Origin: an uncultured archaeon
GTDB taxonomy: Archaea > Asgardarchaeota > Thorarchaeia > Thorarchaeales > Thorarchaeaceae
Direction of reading: 5' to 3'
NCBI GenBank assembly: GCA_964564335.1
Contig: CAZMBV010000003.1
Span: 1,953 to 38,861 of the forward strand
DNA: 36,909 nucleotides
A program made the position numbers and the translations under genes. The notes under the pieces were generated by a model, which was not told the DNA's origin, did not search any database, and was given only the letters and a program-made list of their open reading frames with translations. How positions within the stretch are numbered: position 1 is the first letter of the stretch; every line of letters begins with the position of its first letter. This document shows positions 2,252 to 25,639 of this stretch, one piece after another.

Positions 2252-2260
2252 GATTTTACA

Positions 2261-4748: not shown

Positions 4749-4854
4749 CTCAATCCGCATATTGAATATGCTAAGAGTGTAACAGCTCTTGGCATAACTA
4801 TATACTGGCACACAGTAATTTGGGAATAAGCAGTTTCATATGGTGTGCTTAGAG

Positions 4855-7766: not shown

Positions 7767-7989
7767 CAGCAACTCGTTTAATTTTTTCTTACAAAAGATT
7801 GAAGTAAGTCATATGCCTGACAATACTAATCGTTGATGTACATTTGGTTATACAGGTTTCAAAAAGAATCAATGAATGCCAGTTAACCAATATGCTCAAA
7901 TATGAGACATTAGTTTGAAAATGAAACTTGGCGAATGTATTCTCAATGGTCGAAGATACAGAACGAAACCAAAAATGAGTGTTGCTGTA

Positions 7990-8580: not shown

Positions 8581-8591
8581 AGGTGATATGA

Positions 8592-9095
8592 TTGGCACTA
8601 CATCCATTATTTATACACTTCCACACAGGAATTCTAGCAGTATCAGCTATTTTGGCTATGGTTAATCTACTCTTACGTTTCGGGTTTAAAGACAACATTC
8701 GTACTCCTGGAACACGACTTGCTCGGTTGTTTCATCAGATTGATGTCTTCATGTATGTCGGAATAATAATCGGTTTCATTGGATTAATCGCAGGTGCGAT
8801 CACAGGATTTATGGAGCCAGACTATTCTCTTGCCGCACTTGAAGCATCTGCAATCATGAGGTTCAAGATTCTATGGTCTGTTATTTTAATTGAGATATAC
8901 TTCTTCCTAATGATCGTTCGAACTAAACTGGGAGATCGTATATGGAAGGGAGCGGGTAGTTCGCTCACTTATGGGATTCTCATAATAATAGGCGGTGCGT
9001 TCATCGTTCTCATTGCTGCACTCGGAGGTCTTGCAGTGTATGGAGAGACGATTATGGAACCAATCTTCAATTGGATAGGTATACCCTGGCCATAA
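8592..9095 (+). CDS. DUF2231-like 4-TM membrane protein (possible heme b binding)
   Basis: N-terminal LHPLFIHFH resembles the DUF2231 HPxxVHF motif. AGAITGF and ALGGLAVYG segments. SD AGGTGA at 8581-8586, TTG start. Confidence 0.7.
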   Translation: MALHPLFIHFHTGILAVSAILAMVNLLLRFGFKDNIRTPGTRLARLFHQIDVFMYVGIIIGFIGLIAGAITGFMEPDYSLAALEASAIMRFKILWSVILIEIYFFLMIVRTKLGDRIWKGAGSSLTYGILIIIGGAFIVLIAALGGLAVYGETIMEPIFNWIGIPWP

Positions 9096-9110
9096 TAAGG
9101 AGACCCAGCA

Positions 9111-10289: not shown

Positions 10290-10300
10290 GGAGTGAAGAT

Positions 10301-12022
10301 ATGTTACGAAATGAACATTTACAAAAACTTGCAGATATCGTTGGTGAAGATTTCTTCTCATCAGCAGAGTACATGAATCAACTCTACTCACACGACATTT
10401 CTGCACTTCCAGGAATTGTCAATGACCTAATCAATCCTCATGCAGAAGCAGTTGCACAACCAACTACTAGCGAAATAGTATCGAATTTACTCAAATATTG
10501 TAAAGAGAATAATATCCAGGTTATTCCTCGTGGACATGGAACTTCTGGATATGGCGGAGCGCTCCCTACAAAGGGTGGCTTAGTAGTCGATATGACCCGA
10601 ATGAATGAAATATACGACATCGACAAAGGCAGCATGACAATCCAAGTTGGTGCAGGAATTATTTGGGGAAGATTAATCGAATTTCTTGAAGACGAAGGAC
10701 TATCAGTTGCAGCCTATCCTTCTAGTGCACCTTCCTGTACAGTGGGTGGATGGGTGGCTGCAGGAGGCTGCGGTATTGGTAGTACCAAATATGGAGGCAT
10801 CAGAGAGCAAGTTGTAGAGATGGAAGTCGTCTTACCAGACGGCGAGATCATTAGTACGATTAAACCAATCGATGAAGTTTTCAAAGATGACAAGCCAGAA
10901 CCATTTTTCAAAGGAGACAAGAAATTCTATTGGGAATCCGAAGTTGGCTCAGAAAACAATGAAGAGTCCACTTCAATGTTTATTGATAGTAATGGAACAT
11001 TGGGAATAATCACTAAGGTCGTATTGAGCATAATTCCAATCCGTAAGATTAAACCTATGACTATTTCATTCCCAAACAAGGAACAGACCATGGGTGCTAT
11101 GCAAGCTATCCTCAGAATCACGAGACCTTTCTATCTCCATTTCATAACAGACGAGTTTTTTGGGATGCTAAAAGAGTTAGATAAGGCTCCTGATGTAGCA
11201 GGTGAATGGCTTGTTCTATGTGCTCTTGAAGGAACAGAAGAAGAAAACAATGAATTTGCAGAAAAAATCACCAAAGCAATAGCAATGTATCATGGGACAG
11301 TCGAGTCAGAAGAAATAGGTCATCATGAATGGGATGAAAGGTTCTATCCCATGAGAGTGAAAAGATTGGGTCCAAGTGTAGCGCCATCTGAGGTATATGT
11401 TCCCCTAGAGAGAATGGTGGACTTCATTGACCACTGTAACAAGCATTTCAAGGGAGAGAGAATGGCTATGGAAGGAGCTGTCAATCATCGAAATGAAGTT
11501 GCAGTGCTTACCTGGTTCTTGGATGATGAGCGTCGGAGAATTCCATTCATGTTTGGATGGTATCGGTCTCTTGATGTCATAAATATCGGTATCAAGAAAG
11601 GTGGAAGAGCATACTCTATTGGAATGTGGAATGTCGCACATTCACGCCAGTTCTATGGTAAAGAAGATTATACCAAGATGGCTAAACTAAAGAAAAGGAC
11701 TGATTCGAAGAGCTACCTTAATTCGCATAAAGTATTCCCAGGGCCATTATATTTGAGTACTCGAATTGGGCTGCTCATTATGTTGGCCGCTGCTATCGCA
11801 GTGCCAATTGCTATAATGGTTGCTTGGTGGATAGTGCCAAGTATACTTACAGCCTACGTTCCATGGGTTGTCGTAAATGATCCTGCAACTTTTCTATTGT
11901 GGGCGATAGTTGGGGTTGGCGTCGGATTTGCGGTACAAGAATTTGCAAATCTAATACCAATTTCTGTTGTCCTATCAATGGGTACACCTTTCCTCAGGTT
12001 GGGAAGGAAGATATTCCACTGA
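10301..12022 (+). CDS. FAD-binding oxidoreductase, GlcD/VAO family with C-terminal membrane anchor, paralog 3
   Basis: IPRGHGTSGYGG, YPSSAPSCTVGGW, SNGTLGIIT and WDERFYPMRVKRLGPS. C-terminal TM hairpin. Confidence 0.88.
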   Translation: MLRNEHLQKLADIVGEDFFSSAEYMNQLYSHDISALPGIVNDLINPHAEAVAQPTTSEIVSNLLKYCKENNIQVIPRGHGTSGYGGALPTKGGLVVDMTRMNEIYDIDKGSMTIQVGAGIIWGRLIEFLEDEGLSVAAYPSSAPSCTVGGWVAAGGCGIGSTKYGGIREQVVEMEVVLPDGEIISTIKPIDEVFKDDKPEPFFKGDKKFYWESEVGSENNEESTSMFIDSNGTLGIITKVVLSIIPIRKIKPMTISFPNKEQTMGAMQAILRITRPFYLHFITDEFFGMLKELDKAPDVAGEWLVLCALEGTEEENNEFAEKITKAIAMYHGTVESEEIGHHEWDERFYPMRVKRLGPSVAPSEVYVPLERMVDFIDHCNKHFKGERMAMEGAVNHRNEVAVLTWFLDDERRRIPFMFGWYRSLDVINIGIKKGGRAYSIGMWNVAHSRQFYGKEDYTKMAKLKKRTDSKSYLNSHKVFPGPLYLSTRIGLLIMLAAAIAVPIAIMVAWWIVPSILTAYVPWVVVNDPATFLLWAIVGVGVGFAVQEFANLIPISVVLSMGTPFLRLGRKIFH

Positions 12023-12104
12023 ATCAAATCTGTCGAGCTAAATAGATGTAGACAGACTAAAAAGACAGGCAGTAGTGAAACATAGAAAGAGGATTAGGAT
12101 TCAG

Positions 12105-12785
12105 ATGTCAGCCAAAGCCATCGAGATACGAGATCTCACTAGGAGATATGGGTACAGAGTTGCGCTAAGGAAAATATCTCTCGATTTCTCAGAGAAAGGG
12201 ATTCAGGGTCTCTTTGGTTCAAATGGCGCTGGCAAAACAACATTATTGCGAGTCATATCCACACTACTGCGTCCTCACGGAGGAACGATCATTGTTATGG
12301 GATTCAATCCACAAGAAGAGCCAGAAGAGGTGAAGAAGTTTCTGGGTCTAGTGGGAGATAAACCACTACTATATAATGAGCTAACAGGCATCGAGAATCT
12401 CAGATTTTATTCAAAGCTTTATGGATTGCGGTCTGACTTCTTTGAAAGCCAGGTTGAGGAGTTATCCCAACGTTTTGCCATTAAGACTTGGCTTGAAGAA
12501 CCTGTCAAGAATCTATCGACGGGACTTAAAAAAAGACTTGATATCGTTCGAAGTCTGATTCACAACCCAGAACTATTGCTTCTAGATGAACCATTCAGCG
12601 GCTTAGATAAAGATACAACTGAGGATTTTCAAGAATATCTCAATGAGTTTAGAAACATAAGAACAACAATTGTGACAACTCACAATCTAGCTTTTGGAGC
12701 TGAATTGTGTGATGAATTTGTCACTCTCAGAAAAGGAGTAGTCGTTAGTCAAGGTCCAATTTCTGAATTTGATCAGACACTCTGA
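12105..12785 (+). CDS. ccmA: Heme-exporter ABC ATPase CcmA
   Basis: Walker A GSNGAGKTT, signature LSTGLKKR, LLLDEPF. Directly upstream of ccmB and ccmC. Confidence 0.85.
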   Translation: MSAKAIEIRDLTRRYGYRVALRKISLDFSEKGIQGLFGSNGAGKTTLLRVISTLLRPHGGTIIVMGFNPQEEPEEVKKFLGLVGDKPLLYNELTGIENLRFYSKLYGLRSDFFESQVEELSQRFAIKTWLEEPVKNLSTGLKKRLDIVRSLIHNPELLLLDEPFSGLDKDTTEDFQEYLNEFRNIRTTIVTTHNLAFGAELCDEFVTLRKGVVVSQGPISEFDQTL

Positions 12786-12794
12786 GGTGATACG

Positions 12795-13502
12795 ATGACA
12801 TCCGGATTTAGTGCAGCATTTGCAATCGCAAAGAAGGACATTATCATTCAATTTCGTAAGAAGTTTGAAGCATTCGCAATGTTTCTCTTTGCTCTGATTG
12901 CAGTCATTGCATTTTCTTTTGCACTTGTTTCAGAAGGGTCGATACCAGCAGATGTTGGAAGTGCTATGTTGTGGGTCATCATTTTCTTCATGGGAATGTT
13001 TGGTTTCGCTCCCATTTTCCTTTCAGAATCTGAAACAGGAACCCTACGTGGTCTTGCAACCGCCCCAATTCCAGCATGGGCAGTGTATATTGGCAAAGTT
13101 ATCTATGGTTTTGTCCTGATGGGAATGGTTGTGATCTTTCTAGTTCCTATAATTTCTGTATTGTTTGGTTTCTCATTCCTGACTAACCTTCCACTAACTA
13201 TCGCTGTATTCATTATCGGAATATTAGATTTGGCTGCAGTAGGTTCAATGGCATCAGCCCTAACAATGCCTTCGGAAGCAAAAGCAACAGTATTTCCACT
13301 CGTGTATTTCCCTACAGCAACATCAGGATTAATCCTCCTCATCGAAATCACAAAGAGTATAGTTCTAGGTGACCTGTTTATAGGCATTGGAGTCATGGGA
13401 CCTGAACAAACAGTTATGTTACTATTTGAAATACTTCTTGCTCACCTGATAGCTATGTTGACACTCTCAGCATCTGTATTCCACTTTGCGCTTTCACCTT
13501 GA
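12795..13502 (+). CDS. ccmB: Heme exporter permease CcmB
   Basis: 6-TM protein with AIAKKD, LWVIIFF and ESETGTLRGL..P..VYIGK, typical of CcmB. SD GAGGTGA. Confidence 0.85.
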   Translation: MTSGFSAAFAIAKKDIIIQFRKKFEAFAMFLFALIAVIAFSFALVSEGSIPADVGSAMLWVIIFFMGMFGFAPIFLSESETGTLRGLATAPIPAWAVYIGKVIYGFVLMGMVVIFLVPIISVLFGFSFLTNLPLTIAVFIIGILDLAAVGSMASALTMPSEAKATVFPLVYFPTATSGLILLIEITKSIVLGDLFIGIGVMGPEQTVMLLFEILLAHLIAMLTLSASVFHFALSP

Positions 13503-13564
13503 ATGTTCAAAACTATCAAAACCTTCATATTGCAAGTAGCAGAGCAAGCATCAATTCGAGTTGA

Positions 13565-14239
13565 ATGGCCGTGAGTAAGAACCGACTGATATTTCTCGGA
13601 ATAACAGCAGCGATATCACTTCTCTATGTCTATATGACATGGATTTTCTCACCACCAGATGCTGTACTTGGAGAAAACGTTCGTATCTTCTTCCAGCATG
13701 TAGCCCCTGCTCTTGTAGCATACGGATTATTCGGGGGAACATTACTATGCGGAATAATGTATCTCTGGAAAGGAGATTTGAAATATGACATCCTCGGAGC
13801 GGTATCAATTAAACTTGGATTGTTGTTCACTACTATAACACTATTGAGTGGTATGATGTGGGCGGATGCAGCATGGCATTCACCTTGGAACTGGGACCCA
13901 CGCGAAACGACCACTCTCATTTTATGGGTAGCATATGCTTGTATCTTAGCATATCGATCCTCTGTTAGTGATCGAGAGGTAAGAGCCCAATTTGGTTCTA
14001 TCTTCGGGATCATTGCGTTCCCGATGGTAATATTGAGCTATCTTTCAATCCAAATTTGGGACACTCTTCATCCAAGAGTTATAACAGAATCAGGACTTAA
14101 TATGGAAGTAGAACACATGATGACCCTATTTGTTGCAATGATTGCAGTTACAATGATTGCACTGATTATGGTCGAACTAGCATATAGAGTCGATTTAGCA
14201 TATGAGAAGTTGATGAGAATAAGAATGTCAAGGAGCTAA
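13565..14239 (+). CDS. ccmC: Cytochrome c biogenesis protein CcmC
   Basis: WWD motif GMMWADAAWHSPWNWDPRETT, flanked by His ligands (IFFQHV, TLHP). Confidence 0.93.
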   Translation: MAVSKNRLIFLGITAAISLLYVYMTWIFSPPDAVLGENVRIFFQHVAPALVAYGLFGGTLLCGIMYLWKGDLKYDILGAVSIKLGLLFTTITLLSGMMWADAAWHSPWNWDPRETTTLILWVAYACILAYRSSVSDREVRAQFGSIFGIIAFPMVILSYLSIQIWDTLHPRVITESGLNMEVEHMMTLFVAMIAVTMIALIMVELAYRVDLAYEKLMRIRMSRS

Positions 14240-14243
14240 TATA

Positions 14244-14384
14244 ATGCAGCAGGTTGAACTATTCGTTGTAGCCATAATACTGTGGGGTGGAATGTTCGCA
14301 TTCCTATTTTACCTTCTAATGAGAATGGTCGGAATCGAAAAACAAATCAAGATTGTTGAATCGCAGATAGATGGAGAACAATAG
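14244..14384 (+). CDS. ccmD: CcmD-family small membrane protein (46 aa, not in ORF track)
   Basis: Manually translated MQQVELFVVAIILWGGMFAFLFYLLMRMVGIEKQIKIVESQIDGEQ*. Single TM plus charged helix. Fills the ccmC-ccmE gap almost exactly (4 and 2 nt spacers). AGGAG upstream. Confidence 0.8.
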   Translation: MQQVELFVVAIILWGGMFAFLFYLLMRMVGIEKQIKIVESQIDGEQ

Positions 14385-14386
14385 AG

Positions 14387-14773
14387 ATGAATAAGAAGAC
14401 TCGAATGGTTCTTGTTGTGGTCATCCTAGTATCTACTATTGGTTTTGTCGGTTTTAGCATGCTCAATCTCTTTGTGGATCCATACCTGAGTGTAGATGAT
14501 GTTGTTGAACATCCTGATTCGTATATTGGTAGAACAATACAGGTCAAAGGAGCACTTCAAGCAGGTTCTCTAACCATAAGTGCGGAGAATGTAACTCTAG
14601 TAATCGAAGGAGATAATTATACAATCACAGTGCTGCTACTAGGGGAAGTCCCAGACATGATTGATGGTCAAGATATTGTGGCAATTGGGACGCTGGAATC
14701 AGCCACTCTTATGAGAGCTACCGACATTTTGACATCGTGTCCAAGCAAATACGAAGCCACAACTACTCCATAA
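14387..14773 (+). CDS. ccmE: Heme chaperone CcmE, CxxxY variant (System I*)
   Basis: N-terminal TM, YLSVDDV, OB-fold and ILTSCPSKYE, where Cys replaces the His of HxxxY. Confidence 0.93.
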   Translation: MNKKTRMVLVVVILVSTIGFVGFSMLNLFVDPYLSVDDVVEHPDSYIGRTIQVKGALQAGSLTISAENVTLVIEGDNYTITVLLLGEVPDMIDGQDIVAIGTLESATLMRATDILTSCPSKYEATTTP

Positions 14774-15132
14774 AGAATTGATTCCCAATCATCACCAAAT
14801 CTTACCTTATGACCAAGAGGCTTTGTTTCAAGCATCCAATGAGTATGAACTTTCACGAGTATCAATGCTAACTATATTTCCGGTCGTTTTCAAGCTCGAT
14901 AAAACCTGTGACTTCTGTTGTTGTTCAGTATGTATTGATGCAGTTTGCCTTCTCTGTAGGTTCAATGATGTTTTTCATTTACAACATCTGATAAGGAATG
15001 TAAATAGATCGATGATTTTCTTTGCAGAATCTAACCTTATAGGGTCACATTTAAATTATGGTTAATAAAATATATGTAGCGTTTGAGCGTGTACAAGAAC
15101 GTCTGGTGGACCCATCCGCTAGAACGAAGGTT

Positions 15133-15468
15133 ATGAGTATGCTCATCGAAATGACATTCGCATTTATTCTAGTATTGGGAGCAACCTTCTTGCTATTTCT
15201 AATAGGTAATAGGTTGGCTCCATTGACAACCGATCGTGATGAAGGGCAGCACCAATATGCTTGTGGAGAAAGTCCTATCGGTTTCAAACAGAAGACGAGC
15301 ATATCGCTCTATAGATACCTCATCTATTTCCTCGTGATGGATTCCTCACTATTGATAATTGCCTTTGCAGTACTGGGAGTTGTATACGCAAATCTTCTTT
15401 CACTATTGATGTATCTATCAATTATTCTTGTATCATCACTGTTGTTTTTAGAAGGAGGCAACCAATAG
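15133..15468 (+). CDS. nuoA: NuoA-like membrane subunit
   Basis: 3 TM, loop YACGESP (cf. YECG), YLIYFLVMD. Start is probably 15133 or 15139 rather than 15058. Confidence 0.8.
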   Translation: MSMLIEMTFAFILVLGATFLLFLIGNRLAPLTTDRDEGQHQYACGESPIGFKQKTSISLYRYLIYFLVMDSSLLIIAFAVLGVVYANLLSLLMYLSIILVSSLLFLEGGNQ

Positions 15469-15469
15469 A

Positions 15470-15910
15470 ATGTGTGCCTCTCGACTTGTCAGATGGGCAG
15501 AGAAGCGATCTCCATGGCTACTTCATTTTAACTCAGGTGCATGTAATGGATGTGATATTGAAGTCGTGGCCCTTCTCACCCCAAGGTATGATGTAACGAG
15601 ATTTGGTATTCAACTTGAACCTTCTCCGAGACATGCAGATGTACTCTTAGTTACAGGAGTGGTAACACGTCAGTGTGCTGAGCGTTTGAAACGAATCTAC
15701 GAACAGATGCCCAAACCAGCTTTTGTTATTGCAATAGGCGCGTGCGGATGTTCTGGAGGCGTGTTTGCAGGTAACTACCCCCTATTGAGCGGAGTTGATA
15801 AAGTAATTCCTGTTGATATGTACATTCCCGGATGTCCTCCGAAGCCAGAAGCAATCATTGATGGAGTTGTCAAACTCCTAAAGACATTGGAGGCAAGTGA
15901 AGATGAATGA
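15470..15910 (+). CDS. Group 4 [NiFe]-hydrogenase small subunit (NuoB homologue)
   Basis: GACNGCDIE is a hydrogenase-type CxxC rather than the NuoB CC motif. Also SPRHAD, GACGCSGG, IPGCPPKPE. Confidence 0.92.
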   Translation: MCASRLVRWAEKRSPWLLHFNSGACNGCDIEVVALLTPRYDVTRFGIQLEPSPRHADVLLVTGVVTRQCAERLKRIYEQMPKPAFVIAIGACGCSGGVFAGNYPLLSGVDKVIPVDMYIPGCPPKPEAIIDGVVKLLKTLEASEDE

Positions 15911-17489
15911 TGTAAATAAGAATCTCTCTTCGATGATTCTCGAGCATTTTGGGAAAGACACAGTACAGATAGAATCTCTCAAACCGGGACTAATAGCAAT
16001 CCATGCAAGCTCAGAGAAGAACAGGGATATCATCAAGACATTCCTTGATGCTGATGACGAAGCAACTCTCTCAGCAATTAGTGGAGTCGATCTGGGAGAT
16101 TCGACTGAGGTACTTTATCATATTAGGACTCATGGAACCATTGTCACGCTGAGATGTATTGTCCCAAGAAATAAACCAACTATTGCGAGTATAACCGATT
16201 TGATTCCTGGTGCAAACTTCCATGAACGCGAAACCGCAGATTTCTTTGGAGTAACATTCAAAGGGCATCCATACCCCAAACGACTGCTCATCTCAGATGA
16301 CTGGCCAGAGGGAGTATACCCACTGAGAAAAGACGCTGAGATTCCATCTCCCGAAACCAAAGCAGAAGTTTTACCAGAAGAAGAGATGACTACCAGAGCA
16401 GAGGGAACTAGGACTGTAAAGATTGTCATTGGCCCGCAGCATCCCGCACTTCTTGAACCGGAGAGATTTCTTGTGGATGTCGATGGGGAGACTGTTACAA
16501 AGGTAACACCTCGCATAGGATACTGCCATAGAGGAGTCGAGAAAGCTACCGAAAGTCGGACCTATATGCAGGATGTCTATCTTGTGGAGAGAATTTGCGG
16601 TATCTGTAATAGCTGCCATAGCACGACGTTTTGTCAAGCTGTTGAGTCTATACTCGATGTGGAAGTACCCTCCAGGGGTAAGTTCCTACGTACAATTGTT
16701 CTCGAATTGAACAGGATTCAGAGCCATTTTCTTGTGCTTGGCCATGCTGGTCATGAGATTGGTTACGATGCGCTATTCCAGTATATGTGGCGGGATAGAG
16801 AAATTGCTATGGACCTTACAGAGATACTTACTGGTAACAGAGTGATCACATCATTTCTGGCTATTGGTGGTGTCCGTCGCGATCTTGAAGAAAAGACTAA
16901 GCCTCGGATTATGGAGGACCTCAAGAAGTTGAGAGAGCGAGCAGAATTCTATAAACATCTCTTTGAAGAAGACAGAACTGTTCGGATGAGAACGGAGGGT
17001 GTCGGTGTGATGGACAAAAAGGAAGCCCTCTCATTATGCGTTGTTGGTCCGGTTGCACGTGCATCAGGACTCAAAATTGACGTAAGAAAAGAAGCACCAT
17101 ATGCCGCATATGGCGAGGTCCCCTATGAACTAATTTCCCGCACTGAAGGAGATTCATGGGCTCGACTTCTGGTGCGTGCTGAGGAGGTTCTGAATAGTGT
17201 AGATATGATTGAATATGCTGTTAATAACCTTCCAGCAGGTGACTTCAAGATAAGAGTCCCCAGGAGGGTCGCAGAAGGCGAGTCAATTAGCAGAGTCGAA
17301 GCGCCTCGTGGAGAACTCTTTTACTATGTGAAGAGTAATGGGACACAGTCTCCAGAACGTGTAAAGATTCGGACTCCTACTGTGACAAATCTCTATTCGG
17401 TAATTAAACTAACAGAAGGTGGTAACATTGCTGATGTTCCTGCAGCATTGGTGAGTCTGGACCCATGTTTTTCATGTACTGATAGATAG
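15903..17489 (+). CDS. Group 4 [NiFe]-hydrogenase large subunit, fused NuoC+NuoD-like
   Basis: NuoC-like FHERETADFFGVTFKGHP..YPLRK and GPQHPALLEP. L1 ERICGIC, EAPRGE, and L2 DPCFSCTDR followed directly by a stop. Confidence 0.93.
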   Translation: MNDVNKNLSSMILEHFGKDTVQIESLKPGLIAIHASSEKNRDIIKTFLDADDEATLSAISGVDLGDSTEVLYHIRTHGTIVTLRCIVPRNKPTIASITDLIPGANFHERETADFFGVTFKGHPYPKRLLISDDWPEGVYPLRKDAEIPSPETKAEVLPEEEMTTRAEGTRTVKIVIGPQHPALLEPERFLVDVDGETVTKVTPRIGYCHRGVEKATESRTYMQDVYLVERICGICNSCHSTTFCQAVESILDVEVPSRGKFLRTIVLELNRIQSHFLVLGHAGHEIGYDALFQYMWRDREIAMDLTEILTGNRVITSFLAIGGVRRDLEEKTKPRIMEDLKKLRERAEFYKHLFEEDRTVRMRTEGVGVMDKKEALSLCVVGPVARASGLKIDVRKEAPYAAYGEVPYELISRTEGDSWARLLVRAEEVLNSVDMIEYAVNNLPAGDFKIRVPRRVAEGESISRVEAPRGELFYYVKSNGTQSPERVKIRTPTVTNLYSVIKLTEGGNIADVPAALVSLDPCFSCTDR

Positions 17490-17500
17490 GAGGAAGTTGA

Positions 17501-18505
17501 TTGGTTAGTATTGATCTAGTATTCTTCATTCGTTCACTCCTATTTCCAGGATTTCTGTTTATTCTACTTATGTCTCTTTTCTATGACTGGGTGACACGAA
17601 AAGTAGAGGCACGAATGCAGAACCGAGTTGGACCTAACACTGCAGGACCAGCTGGAATTTTTCAACCTCTGGCTGATATTGTAAAGCTTCTCGCAAAGGA
17701 GAGACTAGTGCCTCATGATGTCAGGTCGCTAGCCTTCACCCTTGCTCCTGTACTATCACTTGCCATCTTCATTTTCACGCTATTCTTTCTGCCAATCGAC
17801 GGTTCCACGACTCTGTCGGGTATAAGCTTTGAGGGCGACCTCATAGTCATCTTGTCGATAATCACTCTTGCAAACCTGTTCCTTTTTCTCGCTGGCTGGG
17901 CGTCAACGAATGCCTATAGCAAAATAGGTGCCTCACGAGTACTGGTCATGTTTCTTGGCTACGACATTCCTCTGGTCATAATCGCACTTACACCTGCATT
18001 TCTTGCAAATAGCCTGAGTGTTTCAACTATTGCAACTAGTCAATCTATTCCATTCCTCTTCTTGATTCCTTGGTCCTTTGTTTTGTTCTTGGTCACTTTG
18101 CAAGCAGAACTGGAAAAAGATCCTTTTGATATACCTGATGCAGAAACCGAAATAGTAGGTGGCTACGAAACAGAATATGGAGGAACGGGGCTTGCTTTTC
18201 TTAAGCTTGCAAAGGATGTCCAGCTTTTCCTCGGTTCAGCTCTGGTTGTCGAGCTCTTTCTTGGAGGTCCCTATGGCCCTGTGTATTTTGATATGCCAGC
18301 TCTGTGGTTCACCATCTGGTTCATCCTAAAGGTTCTCTTTGTTGTCATACTTGGAGAATTCATAGCAAATATCTTCGCACGCCTGCGCATTGACCAAGTC
18401 CTATCAATATCTTGGAAACAGGTCATGCCATTGTCTGTTGTTTCGCTCATGGCGACTCTAATTGTCGCATTCTGGGTGCTACCCATCATAGGAGTTGGAG
18501 GCTAG
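17501..18505 (+). CDS. nuoH: NuoH-like membrane anchor subunit
   Basis: RKVEARMQNRVGP, QPLADIVKLLAKE, PFDIPDAETEIVGGYETEY. SD AGGAGG, TTG start. Confidence 0.92.
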   Translation: MVSIDLVFFIRSLLFPGFLFILLMSLFYDWVTRKVEARMQNRVGPNTAGPAGIFQPLADIVKLLAKERLVPHDVRSLAFTLAPVLSLAIFIFTLFFLPIDGSTTLSGISFEGDLIVILSIITLANLFLFLAGWASTNAYSKIGASRVLVMFLGYDIPLVIIALTPAFLANSLSVSTIATSQSIPFLFLIPWSFVLFLVTLQAELEKDPFDIPDAETEIVGGYETEYGGTGLAFLKLAKDVQLFLGSALVVELFLGGPYGPVYFDMPALWFTIWFILKVLFVVILGEFIANIFARLRIDQVLSISWKQVMPLSVVSLMATLIVAFWVLPIIGVGG

Positions 18506-18510
18506 TAGAG

Positions 18511-18888
18511 ATGAGAAAGTCAAGACTGTCGTCTCTTTGGAAGGATGTGCTACTTCACTTGTTTCGAATCCCAGCAACTCAAAAGTATCCATATGTTCCA
18601 CCCGATGTCCCTGATGGATTCAGAGGACGACACCTCTTCTACATCGATCGTTGCATTAGCTGCAAGCTGTGTGAACGAGTCTGCCCAGCAAAAGCAATTG
18701 AGATGATCGACATCGAAGGCGAGTTGCGACCGTTGTTTATGCTTGACCGTTGTGTTTTCTGCTATCAGTGCGCCGAGAGCTGTCCCAAAGATGCCATTGA
18801 TTTCTCAAAGAATTTTGAGCTTGCTAGCGGTAACAAATCTCAGCTCGTTGTCAGACCAGATGAGGAATTTAAGGAGAGTGAAGAATAG
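18511..18888 (+). CDS. nuoI: NuoI-like 2x[4Fe-4S] subunit
   Basis: PATQKYP..FRGRH, CISCKLCERVCP, CVFCYQCAESCP. ATG 18511 follows the nuoH stop. Confidence 0.9.
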   Translation: MRKSRLSSLWKDVLLHLFRIPATQKYPYVPPDVPDGFRGRHLFYIDRCISCKLCERVCPAKAIEMIDIEGELRPLFMLDRCVFCYQCAESCPKDAIDFSKNFELASGNKSQLVVRPDEEFKESEE

Positions 18889-18889
18889 A

Positions 18890-19354
18890 TTGATTCTTGA
18901 GATACTTGCTATTGGGCTTGTTGTCACCGCACTTCTTGCGGTAAATGTTGATGATCCTATTTACTCAGTGATTTCGTTAGCTTGTGTATTCGTTATCACA
19001 TCTTTGCTATACTTAGTGAATGGAGCATACTATGCTGCCATTTTTCAGTTTGTTATTGGAATAGGAACTCTTGCAATCTTGTTTGTGACCGCTGAGACCC
19101 TTGATGAAACACGTTTTGAGAAGAAGCCATCTAAGTTTCCAATTGGTACTATAGTCGCAGCTCTCATTCTTGTAGTTCCAGTGATTTTTCTCACAATTCC
19201 AGTGATACGGATTATTCCTGAACCTGCAGGTAATCTGCCCTATGTGTTGTGGGATTTGAGGTCTATTGATGTGATTCTGCAGGGCATTATCATGTTGGTT
19301 ATTGCTATTGGTATGATTATTCTTCTGAAAAACGAAAGGGAGGCAGATCGCTGA
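18890..19354 (+). CDS. nuoJ: NuoJ-like membrane subunit
   Basis: 5 hydrophobic segments, YSVISL..AAIFQF. Lies between I and K. Likely TTG start at 18890; the track start at 18743 overlaps nuoI. Confidence 0.8.
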   Translation: MILEILAIGLVVTALLAVNVDDPIYSVISLACVFVITSLLYLVNGAYYAAIFQFVIGIGTLAILFVTAETLDETRFEKKPSKFPIGTIVAALILVVPVIFLTIPVIRIIPEPAGNLPYVLWDLRSIDVILQGIIMLVIAIGMIILLKNEREADR

Positions 19355-19692
19355 TGGACTATCTGATTCTATCAATGATACTCATGGCAATAGGTGTCTA
19401 TGGTCTCTTGACCAAATACAGGTTTCTAAAGATGGTAGTGTCAATTGAGATACTCGCCATTGCTGCAACAATGAACTTTGTTCTTCTTGTATCTGCAACA
19501 GGCATACGCCTGGGTGAGGCACTTCTCGTATTGGCGTTCTCGACAGACATCTGCGTGTCGTCAGTAGTAGTGGCTTTGCTTGTGATAGTATCGAGGAAGT
19601 ATGGGACTACTGATATTCGGGAACTAGCTAGAATGATCCGAGATCGAACAGAGACTCCTGAATCTGAACAAACAACATCGGAGGAAGAGTGA
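19354..19692 (+). CDS. nuoK: NuoK-like membrane subunit
   Basis: IGVYGLL..KMVVSIEIL..NFV, 3 TM, RKYGTTDI. Confidence 0.87.
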   Translation: MDYLILSMILMAIGVYGLLTKYRFLKMVVSIEILAIAATMNFVLLVSATGIRLGEALLVLAFSTDICVSSVVVALLVIVSRKYGTTDIRELARMIRDRTETPESEQTTSEEE

Positions 19693-21645
19693 TTGCTACC
19701 ACTTGCTCCTTGGTTAGTATGGATTATACCTCTTGCATCTAGTTTGTTAATTCCTGTCATGAATAGGATTAGTGACAAAGCACGGGATTACTTTGCAGTA
19801 GTTTCAATTTTTGTCACATTCCTATTTGCCGCCTCGATTATTCCTGATGTGTACTTTGGGCCAGCAGTAGGCACAGACCTAACTGCACCATGGCTTCCGA
19901 TAATTGGAGTAACCGCAGGTATTGTTGTTGATCCCCTCAGCATCCTTTTTGCTAATCTGATTTCCTTCCTAGGTCTCATCATTATTGTATATTCTCTAGG
20001 ATACATGAAAGATGAGGAGGGACTATCACGATACTACTTCTTCCTCACCTTCTTCCTTGGCTCGATGATTGGACTAGTAATGTCGGACAACTTTCTACAG
20101 ATGTTCATTTTCTGGGAGATGGTTGGACTCTGTTCATCCGCACTTGTGTCATTTTGGAGTAAGCGTGTTGAGGTTGTTCGGGCAGGTACTAAGGTCTTTT
20201 TGATGACCCGAATTGGAGATGTATCTTTCTTAGCTGCAATTGCTGTTCTATATGCGAATCTGGGCTCGTTTTCATTTTCATATACAATGGCTCATATTGG
20301 TGATTTGCCTCTCTCTACTATTACCACGGTTGCTTTTCTCATTCTTGGCGGAGCCCTAGTGAAATCTGCGCAATTCCCTCTCCATACTTGGCTTTACACT
20401 GCCATGGAGGCACCTACATCGGTTAGTGCACTTCTCCATGGCGCTACCATGGTCAAGGCGGGTGTGTATCTTCTGGCAAGAGTGTTCATCCTATTTGGTC
20501 CCCTCATCCCTCTAATTCCGATGTGGTTGGAGTCAATTGCATGGATAGGCGCTTTAACTGCGTTTATTGGTGCCACATTGGCATTTGGAACGCCGGATAT
20601 CAAGGGAGTTCCAGCTTACTCGACTGTGAGTCAAATCGGATTTATGATGGCGGCATTTGGAACGGCTTCCTCATCTGCTGCACTTGGATGGTTTGCGGGT
20701 CTGTTCCATCTTATGAGCCATGCATTCTTTCAGAGTCTTGGTTTTCTTGCAATTGGAGCTATCATTCATATGCTGGGAACCCGTGATATGAGAAAGATGG
20801 GAGGTATCAGAAAATTGATGCCTGTTACCTTTGCACTTTGTATCGTGGTACTTTTCGCTCGAACAGGTGTGCCACCATTCGCTAGCTTCTTCAGTAAGGG
20901 ACTTATTGTCAAGAGTCTCTTGATAACAGGAGATCTACTTCAACTCATAATTGTCTATGGCGCAATCGCCCTCACATTTGCTTACACTCTCAGGTTCACA
21001 ATACTGACATTTCTCAGGGGGCAGTCAGACTATGTCAAAAATGCGAACTTGCATGAAGCACCAAAAATTATGCTTATCGCATGTATCATCCTTGCCATCT
21101 TGTGTACAGTATGGGGATTTGTAGCAAATCTATTTGCATCATTCATGCACGTTGGTCAAGTTGTTCAATTCAGTGAAATCTTCAGCATTCCTACAGTGAT
21201 ATTCGTGTTTGTCCTATTCTTAGGAGGATTCCCTGTCTACCTCTACTATTACAAGATGGATGGCATTGAGAGTACATTCAAGACGAAGTTCATTCTCCCC
21301 CTCAGCACAGTAGCTGGAAATGGTTTCTATATCGATAAGTTCTATGACCGCTTTGTCGGTGGCGGCGTTGCTAAGATATCTAGAGGAGTCCGTACTGCTG
21401 AGTACTCATTCTTTGAGCGTATACCAACATATGTTTCTCATGGTGCCAATCGTTTCACAAGTAGAGTACATTCTGGTTTTGATATTGCTATCAGCAAGAT
21501 TCTGTACTTCACCCGTGATAGATGGCTCTCAAAGGATGATAGAAGTCCCCATGATGTTGATGGCTCTTTACCATCATACCTTGTGGTATTCCTTGTTGGA
21601 GTTCTGATTCTTGTTGTAATGATTCTGATGACTATATGGGTGTGA
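19693..21645 (+). CDS. nuoL: NuoL-like antiporter subunit
   Basis: FWEMVGLCS, RIGD, KSAQFPLHTWL..AMEAPTSVSALLHGATMVKAG and FFSK. Long C-terminal extension (GFYIDKFYD). Confidence 0.92.
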   Translation: MLPLAPWLVWIIPLASSLLIPVMNRISDKARDYFAVVSIFVTFLFAASIIPDVYFGPAVGTDLTAPWLPIIGVTAGIVVDPLSILFANLISFLGLIIIVYSLGYMKDEEGLSRYYFFLTFFLGSMIGLVMSDNFLQMFIFWEMVGLCSSALVSFWSKRVEVVRAGTKVFLMTRIGDVSFLAAIAVLYANLGSFSFSYTMAHIGDLPLSTITTVAFLILGGALVKSAQFPLHTWLYTAMEAPTSVSALLHGATMVKAGVYLLARVFILFGPLIPLIPMWLESIAWIGALTAFIGATLAFGTPDIKGVPAYSTVSQIGFMMAAFGTASSSAALGWFAGLFHLMSHAFFQSLGFLAIGAIIHMLGTRDMRKMGGIRKLMPVTFALCIVVLFARTGVPPFASFFSKGLIVKSLLITGDLLQLIIVYGAIALTFAYTLRFTILTFLRGQSDYVKNANLHEAPKIMLIACIILAILCTVWGFVANLFASFMHVGQVVQFSEIFSIPTVIFVFVLFLGGFPVYLYYYKMDGIESTFKTKFILPLSTVAGNGFYIDKFYDRFVGGGVAKISRGVRTAEYSFFERIPTYVSHGANRFTSRVHSGFDIAISKILYFTRDRWLSKDDRSPHDVDGSLPSYLVVFLVGVLILVVMILMTIWV

Positions 21646-21646
21646 T

Positions 21647-23134
21647 ATGATGACTATGGCTCTTCTTCTCATACTGGCTCTGTTCGCAGCTGCGATACCA
21701 ATTTCATATCTTGCTGAGAGAGCACGGACTGGTCTAGGCGCTCTGACGCTCTTCATTGTGGCGACAATAGGCATGTTTCTGCTTTCTACAACAATACCAG
21801 AAATACTCAACGCTGCGAACAATAACCGATATACTGAAACATATTACTGGGTTCCGGAGATAGATGCATCATTTTCACTCTTTGTTGATGGGATTAGCTT
21901 TTCGATTTCATTTATTGCCTTAATCCTGATTGCTCTAACTTCACTCTATTCCATTCCCTATATGAAAGACAGAGATGACATTAATCCATATTATTCCCTC
22001 TTAGCACTCCTATCTCTTGGACTCCTAGGCATTTTCATCACTAGCAATCTCTTGTTGTTTTACTTCTTCTGGGAACTGATTCTCATCCCCTCGTACTTCA
22101 TTATAGGTACGTGGGGGGGAGGGGATTCCTATGGTGTTGCATTCAAATTCTTTATCATCACACATGCAGGTGCGGTTCTTGTACTCCTTGGGATTGGCTC
22201 GGTCTTTGTCATCACTGGGAGCTTGGATATGTTTCAAGTAACAGCTGCACTTGCTACCATGCAGACCGGACCTATTGGTTGGATACTTATTGCGTTCACA
22301 ATTGGGTTCGCAGTGAAACTTGCAGTTATCCCAGCGCATATATGGCTCCCTGATGCGTATTCAGAGAGCCCTGCAACCATGTCTGCACTCCTTGGTGGAG
22401 TGATGACCACTGCTGGTGCCTATGGTATCTTGCGGATCTCACTTGGTGTTGTGCTTCCAGCTTTGTTATCCAATCCATTCGGAGTACAATTCCTGCATAC
22501 TCTAGCCCTCTTTGGAATCTTATCTGCTCTCTTTGGATCTCTTGTGGCTGTTCAAGAGAATGATGTGAACCGAATGCTGGCATACTCAAGTATTTCTCAC
22601 ATGGGGTATGTGGTTTTTGCTCTCTCACTCTTCCCGAATCCCCTAGCCATTATTGCAACTGTCCTCCATCTGCTCAATCACGGTGCAACTAAAGGACTCT
22701 TTTTCCTCACAACGGGTGACATTGTGAAGAAAGCTGGGACGAGAGATATGAATGAACTCAGTGGAGTGGCATCTTGCATGCCAGTCACTGGCACATGCTC
22801 AGCAATCTCTGCATTAAGCATTGGTGGAGTACCGCCGTTCGCATGTTTCATTAGCGAGTTCCTAATTTTCATGAGCGCTTTCCAAGTAGCTATTATAGAT
22901 AGTTTCTATCTAATTCCCACATTTCTCTTGCTAGCCGCGAATGTACTCTCCCTAGCTTATGCATTAAGATATGTTGGCAATGTACTGCTCGGGCCCCCTG
23001 ATACCAATCAGATGAACGAACGGTCAGCATTAGTACTTGGAGTAGTTGTGGCGTTAGCCGTTATAGTGGTTATTCTGGGTATATGGCCTTCAATATTTAC
23101 ACAACTCATCGCACTTGTCAATTTTCAAACATGA
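21647..23134 (+). CDS. nuoM: NuoM-like antiporter subunit
   Basis: FYFFWELILIPSY..WGG, AVKLAVIPAHIWLPDAY, LAYSSISHMG, FISEF. Confidence 0.9.
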   Translation: MMTMALLLILALFAAAIPISYLAERARTGLGALTLFIVATIGMFLLSTTIPEILNAANNNRYTETYYWVPEIDASFSLFVDGISFSISFIALILIALTSLYSIPYMKDRDDINPYYSLLALLSLGLLGIFITSNLLLFYFFWELILIPSYFIIGTWGGGDSYGVAFKFFIITHAGAVLVLLGIGSVFVITGSLDMFQVTAALATMQTGPIGWILIAFTIGFAVKLAVIPAHIWLPDAYSESPATMSALLGGVMTTAGAYGILRISLGVVLPALLSNPFGVQFLHTLALFGILSALFGSLVAVQENDVNRMLAYSSISHMGYVVFALSLFPNPLAIIATVLHLLNHGATKGLFFLTTGDIVKKAGTRDMNELSGVASCMPVTGTCSAISALSIGGVPPFACFISEFLIFMSAFQVAIIDSFYLIPTFLLLAANVLSLAYALRYVGNVLLGPPDTNQMNERSALVLGVVVALAVIVVILGIWPSIFTQLIALVNFQT

Positions 23135-23143
23135 GGAGATATT

Positions 23144-24640
23144 ATGATAGACATTCTAGATATTCTTGCAATACCCACCATCCTTATCCTAATGGGAGTT
23201 CTAACAATACCTGTGATCAAGATACTTCACACAAAACCTCGGTATTTCAGGGAGCTACTCATTGGATGGTTTCTGATCGGCTTCGCTCTCTGCATTATTG
23301 CAATCGCTAATCTCTCCTTCAAATACTTCAATCTCGAACCGATAGTCCCATTCTTCAATATCAATATTGCAGGAATTGAATTCTTGGTATTTTCAAGCAG
23401 TTTTCTGGTCGACGCCCTCTCTGTCTATATTGTTGTGATTTTCATAATAATTGGTGCGATCGCAGTCATATATGGTGTTCTAAGTGAGAAGGATAAGGGA
23501 CAAATCACGGAACGATACTATGCAGTGATGCTCATAGTGCTTGCAGGACTGATGGGAGCCGCACTTGCAGGAGATCTACTCACGCTCTTCATTTTTTGGG
23601 AGGTCTCAGCAGCTGGTTCTAGTTTTCTCATGCTTTATCGGAAGACCCCCAGATCGATTCATGCCACGCTCAAGTATTTGGTCATGATTGTCATAGGCTC
23701 CAGTTTCATCATGTACGGTCTCTCAATCGTCTTTAGTATTGCAGGCACTCTAAACTTCTGGGAGGTCAGGAATGTCCTGATAATTTTCAGTGATAAAACG
23801 CTCTTACTTGTAGCATTCGGATTCATAGCCGGAGGTTATGCAATCGAGGCTGCAATAGTCCCATTCCATCTATGGCTTCCGGACGCATACACGGAGGCGC
23901 CAGCATCATCGTCTGCCTTTCTTTCAGGATTGGTCGATCAGGGTAGCTACTACGTGCTGTTGAGAGTACTCATCTATATTCTGACTCCAACCGTGGTTGT
24001 CAACTGGACTACCACTATTGCAGTGTTCGCAGCTCTCAGTATGATTGTGGGGAATCTTCGAGCACTAACGGAAGTCAACATCAAACGTCTTGTAGCATAC
24101 ATCTGCGTTGCAGATGTGGGTTACAATCTTGTAGCCATAAGCAGTATGACACATGTTGGTGTGATGGCTAATCTCTTCTTCTTCTTCGTCGGGGGAATGG
24201 CTACTGCCCTTGCCTTTATGACTGTAGGATTGTTGAATAGTATGGGTATTGAAACATTAGATGACTTCAATGGGATAGGCAGATCCGTTCCATGGACTAG
24301 TCTAGGTCTCTCATTTAGTCTATTATCATTCACTGGGATTCCTCCATTTGCTGGTTTCTTTGCAAAATACCTTGTATTTACTTCCGCAATTGAAGGAGAT
24401 CTATCTTGGCTGGCAGTTATTGGCGTCACTGCAAGTGTCATCCAAGCAGCATATATATTCAGGCTCGTGAATCGAATGTATGGTCGTCCTTCATCACAAC
24501 AATTCAAAGTCAAAGAGTCAAGAGCTGCACTCATCCCCATTTTTATCCTCGGGTTAGCTCTGATAGTTCTTGGCTTCTTCCCAACGTTGGCTCTCAATCT
24601 GATACAACCGGTAGTCCAGGAGCTTCCAATGATACCATAA
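23144..24640 (+). CDS. nuoN: NuoN-like antiporter subunit
   Basis: FIFWEV, ATLKYL, VPFHLWLPDAYTEAP, GIPPFAGFFAKY. Last gene of the operon. Confidence 0.87.
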   Translation: MIDILDILAIPTILILMGVLTIPVIKILHTKPRYFRELLIGWFLIGFALCIIAIANLSFKYFNLEPIVPFFNINIAGIEFLVFSSSFLVDALSVYIVVIFIIIGAIAVIYGVLSEKDKGQITERYYAVMLIVLAGLMGAALAGDLLTLFIFWEVSAAGSSFLMLYRKTPRSIHATLKYLVMIVIGSSFIMYGLSIVFSIAGTLNFWEVRNVLIIFSDKTLLLVAFGFIAGGYAIEAAIVPFHLWLPDAYTEAPASSSAFLSGLVDQGSYYVLLRVLIYILTPTVVVNWTTTIAVFAALSMIVGNLRALTEVNIKRLVAYICVADVGYNLVAISSMTHVGVMANLFFFFVGGMATALAFMTVGLLNSMGIETLDDFNGIGRSVPWTSLGLSFSLLSFTGIPPFAGFFAKYLVFTSAIEGDLSWLAVIGVTASVIQAAYIFRLVNRMYGRPSSQQFKVKESRAALIPIFILGLALIVLGFFPTLALNLIQPVVQELPMIP

Positions 24641-24687
24641 GTGAAGAATGATGCATTTCTAGTCAAGGATATTTGACCATAGGAATT

Positions 24688-25344
24688 CTACTTCCATTCA
24701 TCGCCAAAACGAGCTTTTTGACCATTAGGTCTTGGCTCGTATGACCAAGGTACGGGGTTTTTCATAATTATTGAAGCCAATTGTGTAACACGTTTACCCA
24801 TTTGTTCGGCCATTGCCATTGCTTCAGTATCAGCACGGATATCACCAGGATTTAGGGCAAACCCGATTGGCCAATTAACACCACCTGGGATAATCATTTC
24901 CTTCACATAGATGAAAAATAGAATTGCTGAAAGTGATAGGTCCATGCCAGACCTTCTGCCCACCACAAAACCGCATGAAACCTTCCCTTCAAGATGAAGG
25001 AATCTACCGGTCCGGTCCATTAAATTCTTCAATAAAGTGGCTATCGTGCCATGATGACCTGGCGAACCAAATATGATGCCATCTGCTAATTTCATTCTTT
25101 CTGCAACGTGATTCAAATCGTCGTCTTGTACACACTTTCCAATCTGATAACATTCTCCGCAGTGTTTACATTCTCTAATATCAAGCTCAGCTAAACCGAC
25201 ATATTCAATCTGTGCTTCTTCATTTTGAGCAGATTCGAGAGCTGTTTCAATGAGTGTTGATGTATTACTGTTTATTCTGGGACTACCAGAAATTCCAAGA
25301 ATTCTTGTTCTCAAATCTATTACCTCGATGTCATTAGAATTCAC
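24688..25344 (-). CDS. Iron-sulfur flavoprotein (Isf)/flavodoxin-family FMN reductase
   Basis: GISGSPR..SNT, CKHCGECYQIGKC, ADGIIFGSP, LKNLMDR. Start codon uncertain. Confidence 0.88.
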   Translation of the reverse strand: MNSNDIEVIDLRTRILGISGSPRINSNTSTLIETALESAQNEEAQIEYVGLAELDIRECKHCGECYQIGKCVQDDDLNHVAERMKLADGIIFGSPGHHGTIATLLKNLMDRTGRFLHLEGKVSCGFVVGRRSGMDLSLSAILFFIYVKEMIIPGGVNWPIGFALNPGDIRADTEAMAMAEQMGKRVTQLASIIMKNPVPWSYEPRPNGQKARFGDEWK

Positions 25345-25639
25345 TTCAAAGGAGTATTTTTTTTATTTTCTAACCCGTATATTGTTATTGAGTTCGAAAA
25401 AATACTTCTGACCAGTATAAAAAGCTTTGAAAGTTTCATTTTGTCGCGTGATACTATTGAATTCATTAATTATTGAAAAATCAATGTTTTTTTTTAACTA
25501 GGGACCTTTTTTTAATCTCAAATAAAGTCTGGCTCGTGCGAGTCTGCAATTCATGTATCTTATAGCATTTGGGGATAAAGAATGATAGAGTAAATTCACT
25601 CGTCGATGCCATTATTAGATAGTCTGGTTAGACCAAAAA

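Follow-up and report, generated by a model that had tools for sequence, protein, structure and literature searches.

The operon and its gene calls

The window analysed here is the whole stretch of 36,909 nt that corresponds to positions 1,953 to 38,861 of contig CAZMBV010000003.1 (GenBank assembly GCA_964564335.1), from an uncultured archaeon belonging to the Thorarchaeota. The subject of this report is an operon of ten tightly packed genes on the + strand of the window (15058-24640), which were assigned using Pfam and NCBIfam as nuoA-B-CD-H-I-J-K-L-M-N, with C and D in one gene, and which are of the type named Hfo in Bathyarchaeia. Owing to the C-D fusion, the eleven core subunits of complex I are encoded by ten genes. 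The last three genes encode Proton_antipo_M proteins according to Pfam, and NuoL, NuoM and NuoN according to NCBIfam. An earlier note on this DNA, made from the sequence alone, had described the same gene set and order, and both are confirmed by the domain assignments. The features and their scores are listed in Table 1.

The start of the nuoA-like gene is either 15058, where the frame opens, or an internal ATG at 15133 (Met26), the latter being the start given in the earlier note. The CD subunit is 528 aa long when read from the ATG at 15903 and lies in a 530-aa frame beginning at an upstream GTG at 15897; the residue numbers given below for motifs are those of the 530-aa frame. The nuoI-like gene, as judged from the translation, begins at ATG 18511, directly after the nuoH stop codon, and the start of the nuoJ-like gene is uncertain, its frame opening at 18743 and overlapping nuoI. 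The match to the NuoL model covers residues 7-592 of the L-like subunit and positions 6-586 of the 615 in the profile. A frame in the operon leader (14778-15065) had no Pfam or NCBIfam match.

The absence of a NuoEFG or FpoF module, claimed in the earlier note, was borne out. No NuoE, NuoF, NuoG or FpoF-like gene was found in the Pfam and NCBIfam annotation of the window, and a search for NuoF (Complex1_51K) in the 83 % complete genome (300 contigs) gave no match; the FpoF/FrhB search covered the window. Genes for a Mrp-type or MbhABCF-type Na+ module were not found in the cluster. A scan of the region for sigma-70 promoters and terminators returned counts at the level of shuffled sequence and is in any case unsuited to an archaeon.

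Table 1. Features of the inserted block and the gene to its right (positions in the window)
Feature	Position	Strand	Best match or remark
Left junction and non-coding leader of inserted block	14774..15057		95-codon TTG frame inside
nuoA-like membrane subunit (hfoA)	15058..15468	+	Pfam Oxidored_q4, 25.1 bits (cut-off 23.3)
nuoB-like hydrogenase small subunit	15470..15910	+	NCBIfam NuoB models, 171.7 (cut-off 116) and 161.1 (cut-off 142.7)
Fused nuoC-nuoD [NiFe] large subunit	15903..17489	+	Pfam Complex1_30kDa, NiFeSe_Hases and Complex1_49kDa
nuoH-like membrane subunit	17501..18505	+	Pfam NADHdh, 285 bits; NCBIfam NuoH 249, FpoH 197
nuoI-like 2x[4Fe-4S] ferredoxin-type subunit	18511..18888	+	Pfam Fer4 families; NCBIfam NuoI 93.7 (below cut-off 113)
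nuoJ-like membrane subunit	18863..19354	+	Pfam Oxidored_q3, 37.3 bits (cut-off 33.2)
nuoK-like membrane subunit	19354..19692	+	Pfam Oxidored_q2, 50.7 bits
nuoL-like antiporter-like subunit, 650 aa	19693..21645	+	NCBIfam NuoL, 429.7 bits
nuoM-like antiporter-like subunit	21647..23134	+	NCBIfam NDH_I_M, 298.2 bits (cut-off 263.8, passed)
nuoN-like antiporter-like subunit	23144..24640	+	NCBIfam NDH_I_N, 236.7 bits (below cut-off 332.6)
Right junction of inserted block	24641..24687		Reaches the stop codon of the FMN-reductase gene
FMN-reductase gene	24688..25344	-	Convergent with the operon

The [NiFe] site

The four cysteines expected of a [NiFe] centre are present in the CD subunit exactly where the earlier note had placed them, in RICGIC (residues 232-237, nt 16590-16607) and DPCFSC (residues 522-527, nt 17460-17477). 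The corresponding L1 motif, CGICNSCH (in RICGICNSCHS), and L2 motif, DPCFSCTDR, both fit the definitions given in the text of Loh et al. 2021 (PMC7886697), namely C[GS][ILV]C[AGNS]xxH for L1 and [DE][PL]Cx[AGST]Cx[DE][RL] for L2. The HPALLEP sequence of the large subunit (in GPQHPALLEP, nt 16440-16460) and the CNGC of the small subunit (nt 15542-15553), also reported in the earlier note, were found as described. The CD subunit stops at DPCFSCTDR, without a C-terminal extension. The four [NiFe] cysteines, the Glu of HPxxxEP and the His of L1 show no variation among the 51 complete relatives described below. L1 is conserved over its whole length, and 50 of the 51 proteins stop at ...CTDR without an extension.

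In a sequence search of PDB, the CD subunit scored 292 bits with MbhL and 291 bits with HycE, as compared with at most 232 bits for NuoD chains. A Foldseek search of PDB using an AlphaFold2 model of this subunit placed HycE first and fused NuoCD chains next, with TM-scores of about 0.45, and did not discriminate between them.

The small subunit has one four-Cys [4Fe-4S] site (C25, C28, C92 and C122), in the motifs GACNGCDIE, GACGCSGG and PGCPP. Its A-C-N-G-C is of the CxxC form found in HycG of Escherichia coli, and A24-C25 aligns to the tandem CC (C63-C64) of E. coli NuoB. Sequence evidence therefore supports the assignment of the operon as a group 4-type [NiFe] hydrogenase with all core genes of complex I and no NADH or F420 input module.

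Relatives of the large subunit

A search with the large subunit found 7856 of 8000 scored candidates at E ≤0.001. The 120 relatives that were listed all carry the same three Pfam domains and, the window's own protein aside, are 56-69 % identical to it. In contigs representing one genome per species, 466 stretches encode a relative of the large subunit, and the best 80 loci were kept. According to their titles, 72 of these are from Bathyarchaeota, two from Thermoproteota, one each from Thorarchaeota, Promethearchaeota and an uncultured archaeon, and three from bacterial bins. All ten genes are present and collinear in 51 of the 80 loci, which are the complete relatives referred to throughout. 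Among the remaining 29, about eight are rearranged (L009, L058, L063, L065, L070, L072, L076 and L078), two (L039 and L040) have no close N-like gene, two (L077 and L087) fell under the identity threshold, and the rest are mostly cut by contig ends.

A tree of the large subunit was built by a quick LG+G4 run from 89 rows (86 locus frames, the window, and E. coli NuoCD and HycE, the last two being the only labelled outgroups) and 528 columns. The window falls within a clade of 81 rows, supported by a Shimodaira-Hasegawa-like approximate likelihood ratio test (SH-aLRT) value of 99, together with L049 and L059. These two lie on WRGM and WRJX contigs, which belong to the metagenome-assembled genomes (MAGs) Nc150P4_bin1 and Nt197P4_bin22, both listed in Loh et al. 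Each locus carries the ten genes in the order seen in the window, likewise with a fused CD gene, and the CD proteins are 56-57 % identical to that of the window. Four other Asgard group 4 genes (L105-L108) and one Anaerolineae gene lie outside the clade, followed by HycE and then by NuoCD grouped with the window genome's own NuoD. Within the clade, the CD proteins of the window and of a second genome of the genus (G018), which share 69 % identity over residues 1-530, form a clade of their own (SH-aLRT 100). The G018 protein is identical to that of L008, the record titled Thorarchaeota.

Variation in the operon was seen among the related loci. In two Bathyarchaeia loci with long flanks (L039 and L040), genes A to M are present and no close N-like gene was found; these may represent a two-antiporter version of the operon. 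Loci L058, L063, L070, L072, L076 and L078 form a well-supported Bathyarchaeia sub-clade of the Hfo clade in which the operon is rearranged, the order being CD, I, H on the opposite strand, K, then remoter antiporter-like genes (30-35 % identity). The NiFe cysteines are retained in this sub-clade.

Comparison with described complexes

In the text of Loh et al. 2021 (PMC7886697), Hfo is an 'Fpo-like 11-subunit' [NiFe] hydrogenase of Bathyarchaeia subgroup Bathy-6, assigned to HydDB subgroup 4g ('4g-6'), that lacks both FpoFO/NuoEFG and the Na+ module of Mbh, and it is considered there to tie the energy-converting hydrogenases to complex I more closely than Mbh does. On gene content and sequence, the region in the window is an Hfo-type operon, probably of subgroup 4g in the sense of that paper, and its architecture was thus already known. 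The host and the mode of arrival are the new part of the finding. The operon shares with Hfo of Bathy-6 the subunit set and order, the absence of FpoFO/NuoEFG and of a Mrp-type module, and the L1 and L2 motifs, as well as membership of the 81-row clade and the level of identity to two of its MAGs given above. It differs in its Thorarchaeota host and in being an accessory cassette, found in 2 of the 19 genomes of the genus.

The earlier note had mentioned reports of similar enzymes from Asgard MAGs. It was correct in that the architecture is in print, but this exact architecture was first reported from Bathyarchaeia. The large subunit is placed within a named clade that shares the operon, that of Hfo, though the clade has been described rather than characterised. 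Asgard archaea are not mentioned in the text of Loh et al. (PMC7886697), and no description of an Hfo operon in Thorarchaeota was found in the main-text passages covered by the literature search. One preprint assigns to group 4g a hydrogenase encoded by two Asgard MAGs, in a passage that does not name their class. From the passages available, Appler et al. (2024 preprint) define Asgard hydrogenase groups 4j-4q, and Valentin-Alvarado et al. 2024 (PMC11291895) describe an Asgard complex that has a lateral helix and additional antiporter-like subunits and whose genes lie in a block with Hdr and ATP synthase. As far as those passages go, the complex-I-like group 4 hydrogenases of Asgard archaea share with the operon a [NiFe] large subunit, Nuo-like membrane subunits, the lack of NuoEFG, a predicted lateral helix in the L-like subunit, and a proposed ferredoxin-to-H2 activity with ion pumping. 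However, the Atabeya and Freya complexes have at most eight Nuo-like genes and are encoded alongside Hdr, a group 3 hydrogenase and ATP synthase in one block, whereas the window operon has all of L, M and N, strict Nuo order and unrelated neighbours.

Complex I and Fpo have in common with the operon the gene order A-B-C-D-H-I-J-K-L-M-N, three antiporter-like subunits and many channel residues, and the NuoB and NuoM models were passed. The differences are that the operon encodes [NiFe] cysteines in place of the quinone-site His/Tyr and CxxC in place of the tandem CC, has no electron input module, and has several membrane-arm Lys/Glu residues changed.

The closest solved large subunits by sequence are those of Mbh from Pyrococcus furiosus (group 4d, 6cfw) and Hyc from E. 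coli (group 4a, 7z0s), with which the [NiFe] motifs and the small-subunit CxxC are shared. HycE runs on past ...CTDR, whereas the window large subunit does not. Mbh has one antiporter-like subunit and a Mrp-type module in a different gene order, Ech has six subunits of which one is antiporter-like, and Hyc has HycB/F and FdhF as partners. The gene sets of Mbh (4d), Ech (4e) and Hyc/Hyf (4a) are not matched by the operon, which has three antiporter-like genes together with A, J and K.

Host and site of insertion

Judged by its proteins, the host is a Thorarchaeota genome. The contig can be assigned to the host genus because the proteins encoded on either side of the operon are 65-89 % identical to those of congeners; MutS orthologues are 72-76 % and CcmC orthologues 70-89 % identical. 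For a second protein of the genome, the 46 closest clusters are, where named, from Thorarchaeota, with one from Hodarchaeota.

In three congeners (G002, G013 and G018) the gene order is hdrD-glcD ... ccmA-ccmB-ccmC-ccmE, followed by the flavin mononucleotide (FMN)-reductase gene on the opposite strand and mutS. The matches to ccmE and to the FMN-reductase gene end 9-20 nt apart in these genomes and 9.9 kb apart in the window, and DNA similarity to the three congeners extends to about 14757, where ccmE ends, and resumes at 24676-24694. As ccmE and the FMN-reductase gene abut in the three congeners and the operon fills the gap between them in the window, the operon is a 9.9 kb laterally inserted cassette located between two convergent genes, and was not inherited with the genus. 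An Hfo-type gene is present in only 2 of the 19 genomes, that of the window (G000) and G018. The other congeners have only a 380-aa NuoD-like gene (31-37 % identity), except that two also have another group 4 type (43 %). In G018 the operon copy is on another contig beside other genes and the ccmE site is empty; the cassette sits at different places in its two carriers. The operon is a recent guest in the window genome and, as a lateral insertion, it says nothing on the history of the Asgard lineage itself.

Neither direct nor inverted repeats were found at the ends of the 9.9 kb block, and no integrase or transposase was found within the window. The free tree nests the Thorarchaeota copies among those of Bathyarchaeia, but the approximately unbiased (AU) test does not reject a tree in which all Bathyarchaeia rows are kept together, and the claim of a Bathyarchaeia donor was dropped. 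The neighbouring genes were considered as possible parts of the system and set aside: a tblastn search of the 80 loci with 15 flanking proteins, among them the GlcD/HdrD pairs, the FMN reductase and MutS, gave one weak match, and for the ccm proteins there were only weak ccmA-like ABC matches in the related loci.

The stretch was found (half or more of sampled words) in 14 sequencing runs besides the possible source, all of them salt marsh metagenomes from 2019 that may belong to one campaign, and contigs of two DNA runs cover the whole stretch examined.

Proposed function and alternative explanations

We propose that the operon encodes an Hfo-type, ferredoxin-linked, ion-translocating and reversible hydrogenase carried on a laterally inserted cassette in Thorarchaeota, and give this reading a probability of roughly 0.72. 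Reduced ferredoxin would deliver electrons to the NuoI-like 2x[4Fe-4S] subunit. Through the one [4Fe-4S] cluster of the small, NuoB-like subunit they would reach the [NiFe] centre, which would be bound by four cysteines in the fused NuoCD-like subunit and at which protons would be converted to H2. Translocation of H+ or Na+ via a complex-I-type arm, made up of the H, A, J and K subunits and the L, M and N antiporter-like subunits, would be powered by the energy released. The enzyme would be reversible, such that membrane potential could drive the reduction of ferredoxin by H2; in this organotroph-like genome we slightly favour H2 evolution as the predominant direction. The ferredoxin-linked hydrogenase of the earlier note is upheld in the form of a complex-I-shaped, probably ferredoxin-linked [NiFe] hydrogenase, the donor being assigned by analogy.

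Residues of the membrane arm were compared by alignment to the E. coli subunits, using E. coli residue numbers, and to the 51 complete relatives. The L-like subunit retains the Glu of transmembrane helix (TM) 5, the TM7 Lys, the TM8 His, the TM12 Lys and the lateral-helix residue aligned to D542, and has an extra TM8 Lys at the position of a Thr in E. coli NuoL. The M-like subunit retains the TM5 Glu, TM7 Lys and TM12 Glu, and the N-like subunit the TM5 Glu and TM12 Lys. The residue at E36 in the NuoK-like subunit and the residue at D79 in the NuoA-like subunit are both retained in 51/51; E81 of the latter is replaced by Ser/Ala. Most of the acidic residues of E. coli NuoH that were checked are retained in the NuoH-like subunit. 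In an AlphaFold2 model of the L-like subunit, a helix of 64 residues (545-608) precedes the last helix (627-649), and the C-terminal extension looks like the lateral helix plus last transmembrane helix of the complex I pattern. Of the maturation genes that the earlier note had suggested looking for, HypA, HypB, HypD and HypF scored above their cut-offs in the window genome, and HypE is partial, cut by 100 N (an assembly gap or masked stretch) at about 5360-5460 of contig C70, with hypA just upstream.

A number of points weigh against the proposed reading. HypC, the remaining maturation protein, was not found in the 83 % complete genome. The genome also encodes Mvh/Vhu-like (group 3c type) and sulfhydrogenase-like (group 3b type) hydrogenases, which the Hyp proteins could serve, and for this reason the hyp genes are not specific evidence for the Hfo-type enzyme. 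There is no ferredoxin gene within the operon, and the ferredoxin donor, the ion pumping and the direction are all argued by analogy with Mbh, Ech and Fpo-like complexes. As the earlier note had supposed, there was no biochemically characterised enzyme, in this case for subgroup 4g as of 2021 (PMC7886697, section 8). In the membrane arm, the TM8 Lys is replaced by Thr/Ser/Gly in the M-like subunit; Glu takes the place of the TM7 Lys of the N-like subunit in 51/51, and the region of its TM8 Lys is Asp-Gln; E72 of the NuoK-like subunit is replaced by Val and Y59 of the NuoJ-like subunit by Gly. Pumping may consequently differ or be weaker. The AlphaFold2 models are poor, with a mean predicted local distance difference test (pLDDT) value of 62 for the CD subunit (<50 at the NiFe site) and of 66 for the L-like subunit (<50 at the lateral helix), and at these two places they indicate no more than secondary structure. 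One metatranscriptome library contained six contigs (151-269 nt, five of them ≥99 % alike) on the ccmC, H, J, L and N genes, and these are a weak hint of transcription, as such libraries can hold DNA; large parts of the operon were without cover in this library, from which nothing was concluded. Finally, a tree with all of the Bathyarchaeia rows held together was not rejected by the AU test (p 0.516) and was 0.69 log-likelihood units better, and the tree thus does not single out a donor for the transfer.

The same enzyme may run mainly in the reverse direction, with H2 uptake and membrane potential serving to reduce ferredoxin for CO2 fixation or acetogenesis. This is possible, although we consider it somewhat unlikely. 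It is the direction proposed and favoured for acetogenic Bathy-6 in sections 8 and 10 of Loh et al. (PMC7886697). The other hydrogenases of the genome could set the H2 level, and energy-converting hydrogenases such as Ech, Eha and Ehb are reversible as a class. However, the sequence carries no sign of direction, and the absence of the operon from 17 of the 19 genomes makes it an accessory trait rather than part of the core carbon fixation of the genus.

Vertical inheritance within the genus accompanied by many losses, or movement within the genome, would replace lateral acquisition and is improbable. The single, fully supported clade formed by the copies in G000 and G018 would fit one old presence in the genus, and the AU test allows the Asgard copies to be sister to all of the Bathyarchaeia copies. 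Against this, loss in 17 of 19 genomes would be needed, leaving seamless ccmE/FMN-reductase junctions at all three of the sites inspected, and the operon is at different loci in its two carriers. In addition, the best matches in 12 sampled genomes from other families of the phylum are only 37-51 % identical and have other lengths.

It is very improbable that the complex is not a hydrogenase and is instead a complex I/Fpo-like oxidoreductase for quinone, methanophenazine or a sulfur compound, with the cysteines a relic. Gene order and membrane subunits resemble those of Nuo, the models for NuoB and NuoM were passed and the NCBIfam NuoD model was narrowly missed by the CD subunit (357, cut-off 360, a difference of 3 bits), and a precedent for a change of substrate is provided by MBS, a relative of Mbh (6u8y among the PDB matches). 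However, the four cysteines, the proton-path Glu and the L1 His are invariant in 51 of 51 relatives from several phyla. The positions of the quinone-site H224 and Y273 of E. coli NuoCD are occupied by Leu/Ile and Gly (Leu and Gly in the protein of the window), and the N2-type tandem CC is absent. The relic pattern can be seen in the genome's own NuoD on contig C26, in which the cysteines are gone and HVSAHG is retained.

Binning error, in which a Bathyarchaeia operon was placed in a Thorarchaeota bin, is hardly credible despite the 72 of 80 related loci titled Bathyarchaeota and the few in bins titled Acidobacteriota or Chloroflexota that are themselves possibly erroneous, as the operon lies on one contig between genes that are both 65-89 % identical to, and syntenic with, those of three congeners, and both sides of each junction are covered by contigs from two additional DNA runs, the right junction being spanned by record 21 of run X7 (23081-25444), while no listed piece bridges the left.

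A broader proposal, which we regard as doubtful, is that Hfo is a self-contained, horizontally mobile 'plug-in' energy converter that passes between archaeal phyla (Bathyarchaeia and Asgard) and lands seamlessly between convergent genes, with an arm that is not a copy of that of complex I. The coupling chemistry or the pumped ion could then differ from those of both complex I and Mbh, because the N-like subunit has Glu/Asp at the positions of the TM7/TM8 Lys (the TM7 change in all 51 relatives examined) and the M-like subunit is without the TM8 Lys.

Other features of the window and genome

A non-hydrogenase Nuo-like cluster is found on contig C26 (L089:11869-19874), in the order B, a 199-aa unknown protein, A, J, K, C, D, H and I, where the contig ends. 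The NuoD encoded there has HVSAHG and no cysteine motifs, and the NuoB domain has the tandem CC. This NuoB domain is located at the C-terminal end of a protein of 667 aa that begins with a GlcD-like flavin adenine dinucleotide (FAD)-linked oxidase of ~480 residues (FAD_binding_4 and FAD-oxidase_C). Upstream of the fusion lies a divergent gene for an HdrD-like CCG protein. Of 18 congeners, 15 have the GlcD-NuoB fusion at full length and three have it in part, and a protein spanning both domains was not seen in 12 genomes of other families. Among 120 listed clusters, 46 have this domain set; all are ≥72 % identical and, where named, are from Thorarchaeota with one from Hodarchaeota. A single literature search found no report of the fusion, which may couple a 2-hydroxyacid dehydrogenase directly to a complex-I-like pump.

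To the left of the operon, window positions 758-12022 encode three tandem pairs of a GlcD-like FAD oxidase and an HdrD-like protein (Fer4_8 and CCG), together with an amine-oxidase-type flavoprotein, and this cluster is syntenic in G002 and G013. Positions 12075-14773 hold ccmA-ccmB-ccmC-ccmE, cytochrome c maturation genes in an Asgard genome. CcmC orthologues are present in 3 of the 5 congeners searched. The CcmE motif is C-P-S-K-Y, which we take to be the Cys-type variant (archaea, Desulfovibrio) that stands in place of the His-type motif. Elsewhere in the genome, a gene for an IS605 OrfB/Cas12f-like TnpB is located on contig C20 (L088:2191-3201, - strand), about 4 kb from hypD.

Significance

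The Hfo-type enzymes are the hydrogenases closest in layout to complex I. They bear on its rise from proton-reducing ancestors, as well as on energy conservation in Asgard archaea and Bathyarchaeia. The Thorarchaeota instance leaves this picture unchanged. What the Thorarchaeota operon adds is threefold. It behaves as a mobile cassette, for which a clean empty-site comparison is available inside one genus of Thorarchaeota. The genome that holds it also has another complex-I-like cluster, which was inherited vertically. Finally, the conserved departures of its M-like and N-like subunits from complex I could serve as targets for structural or mutational study.

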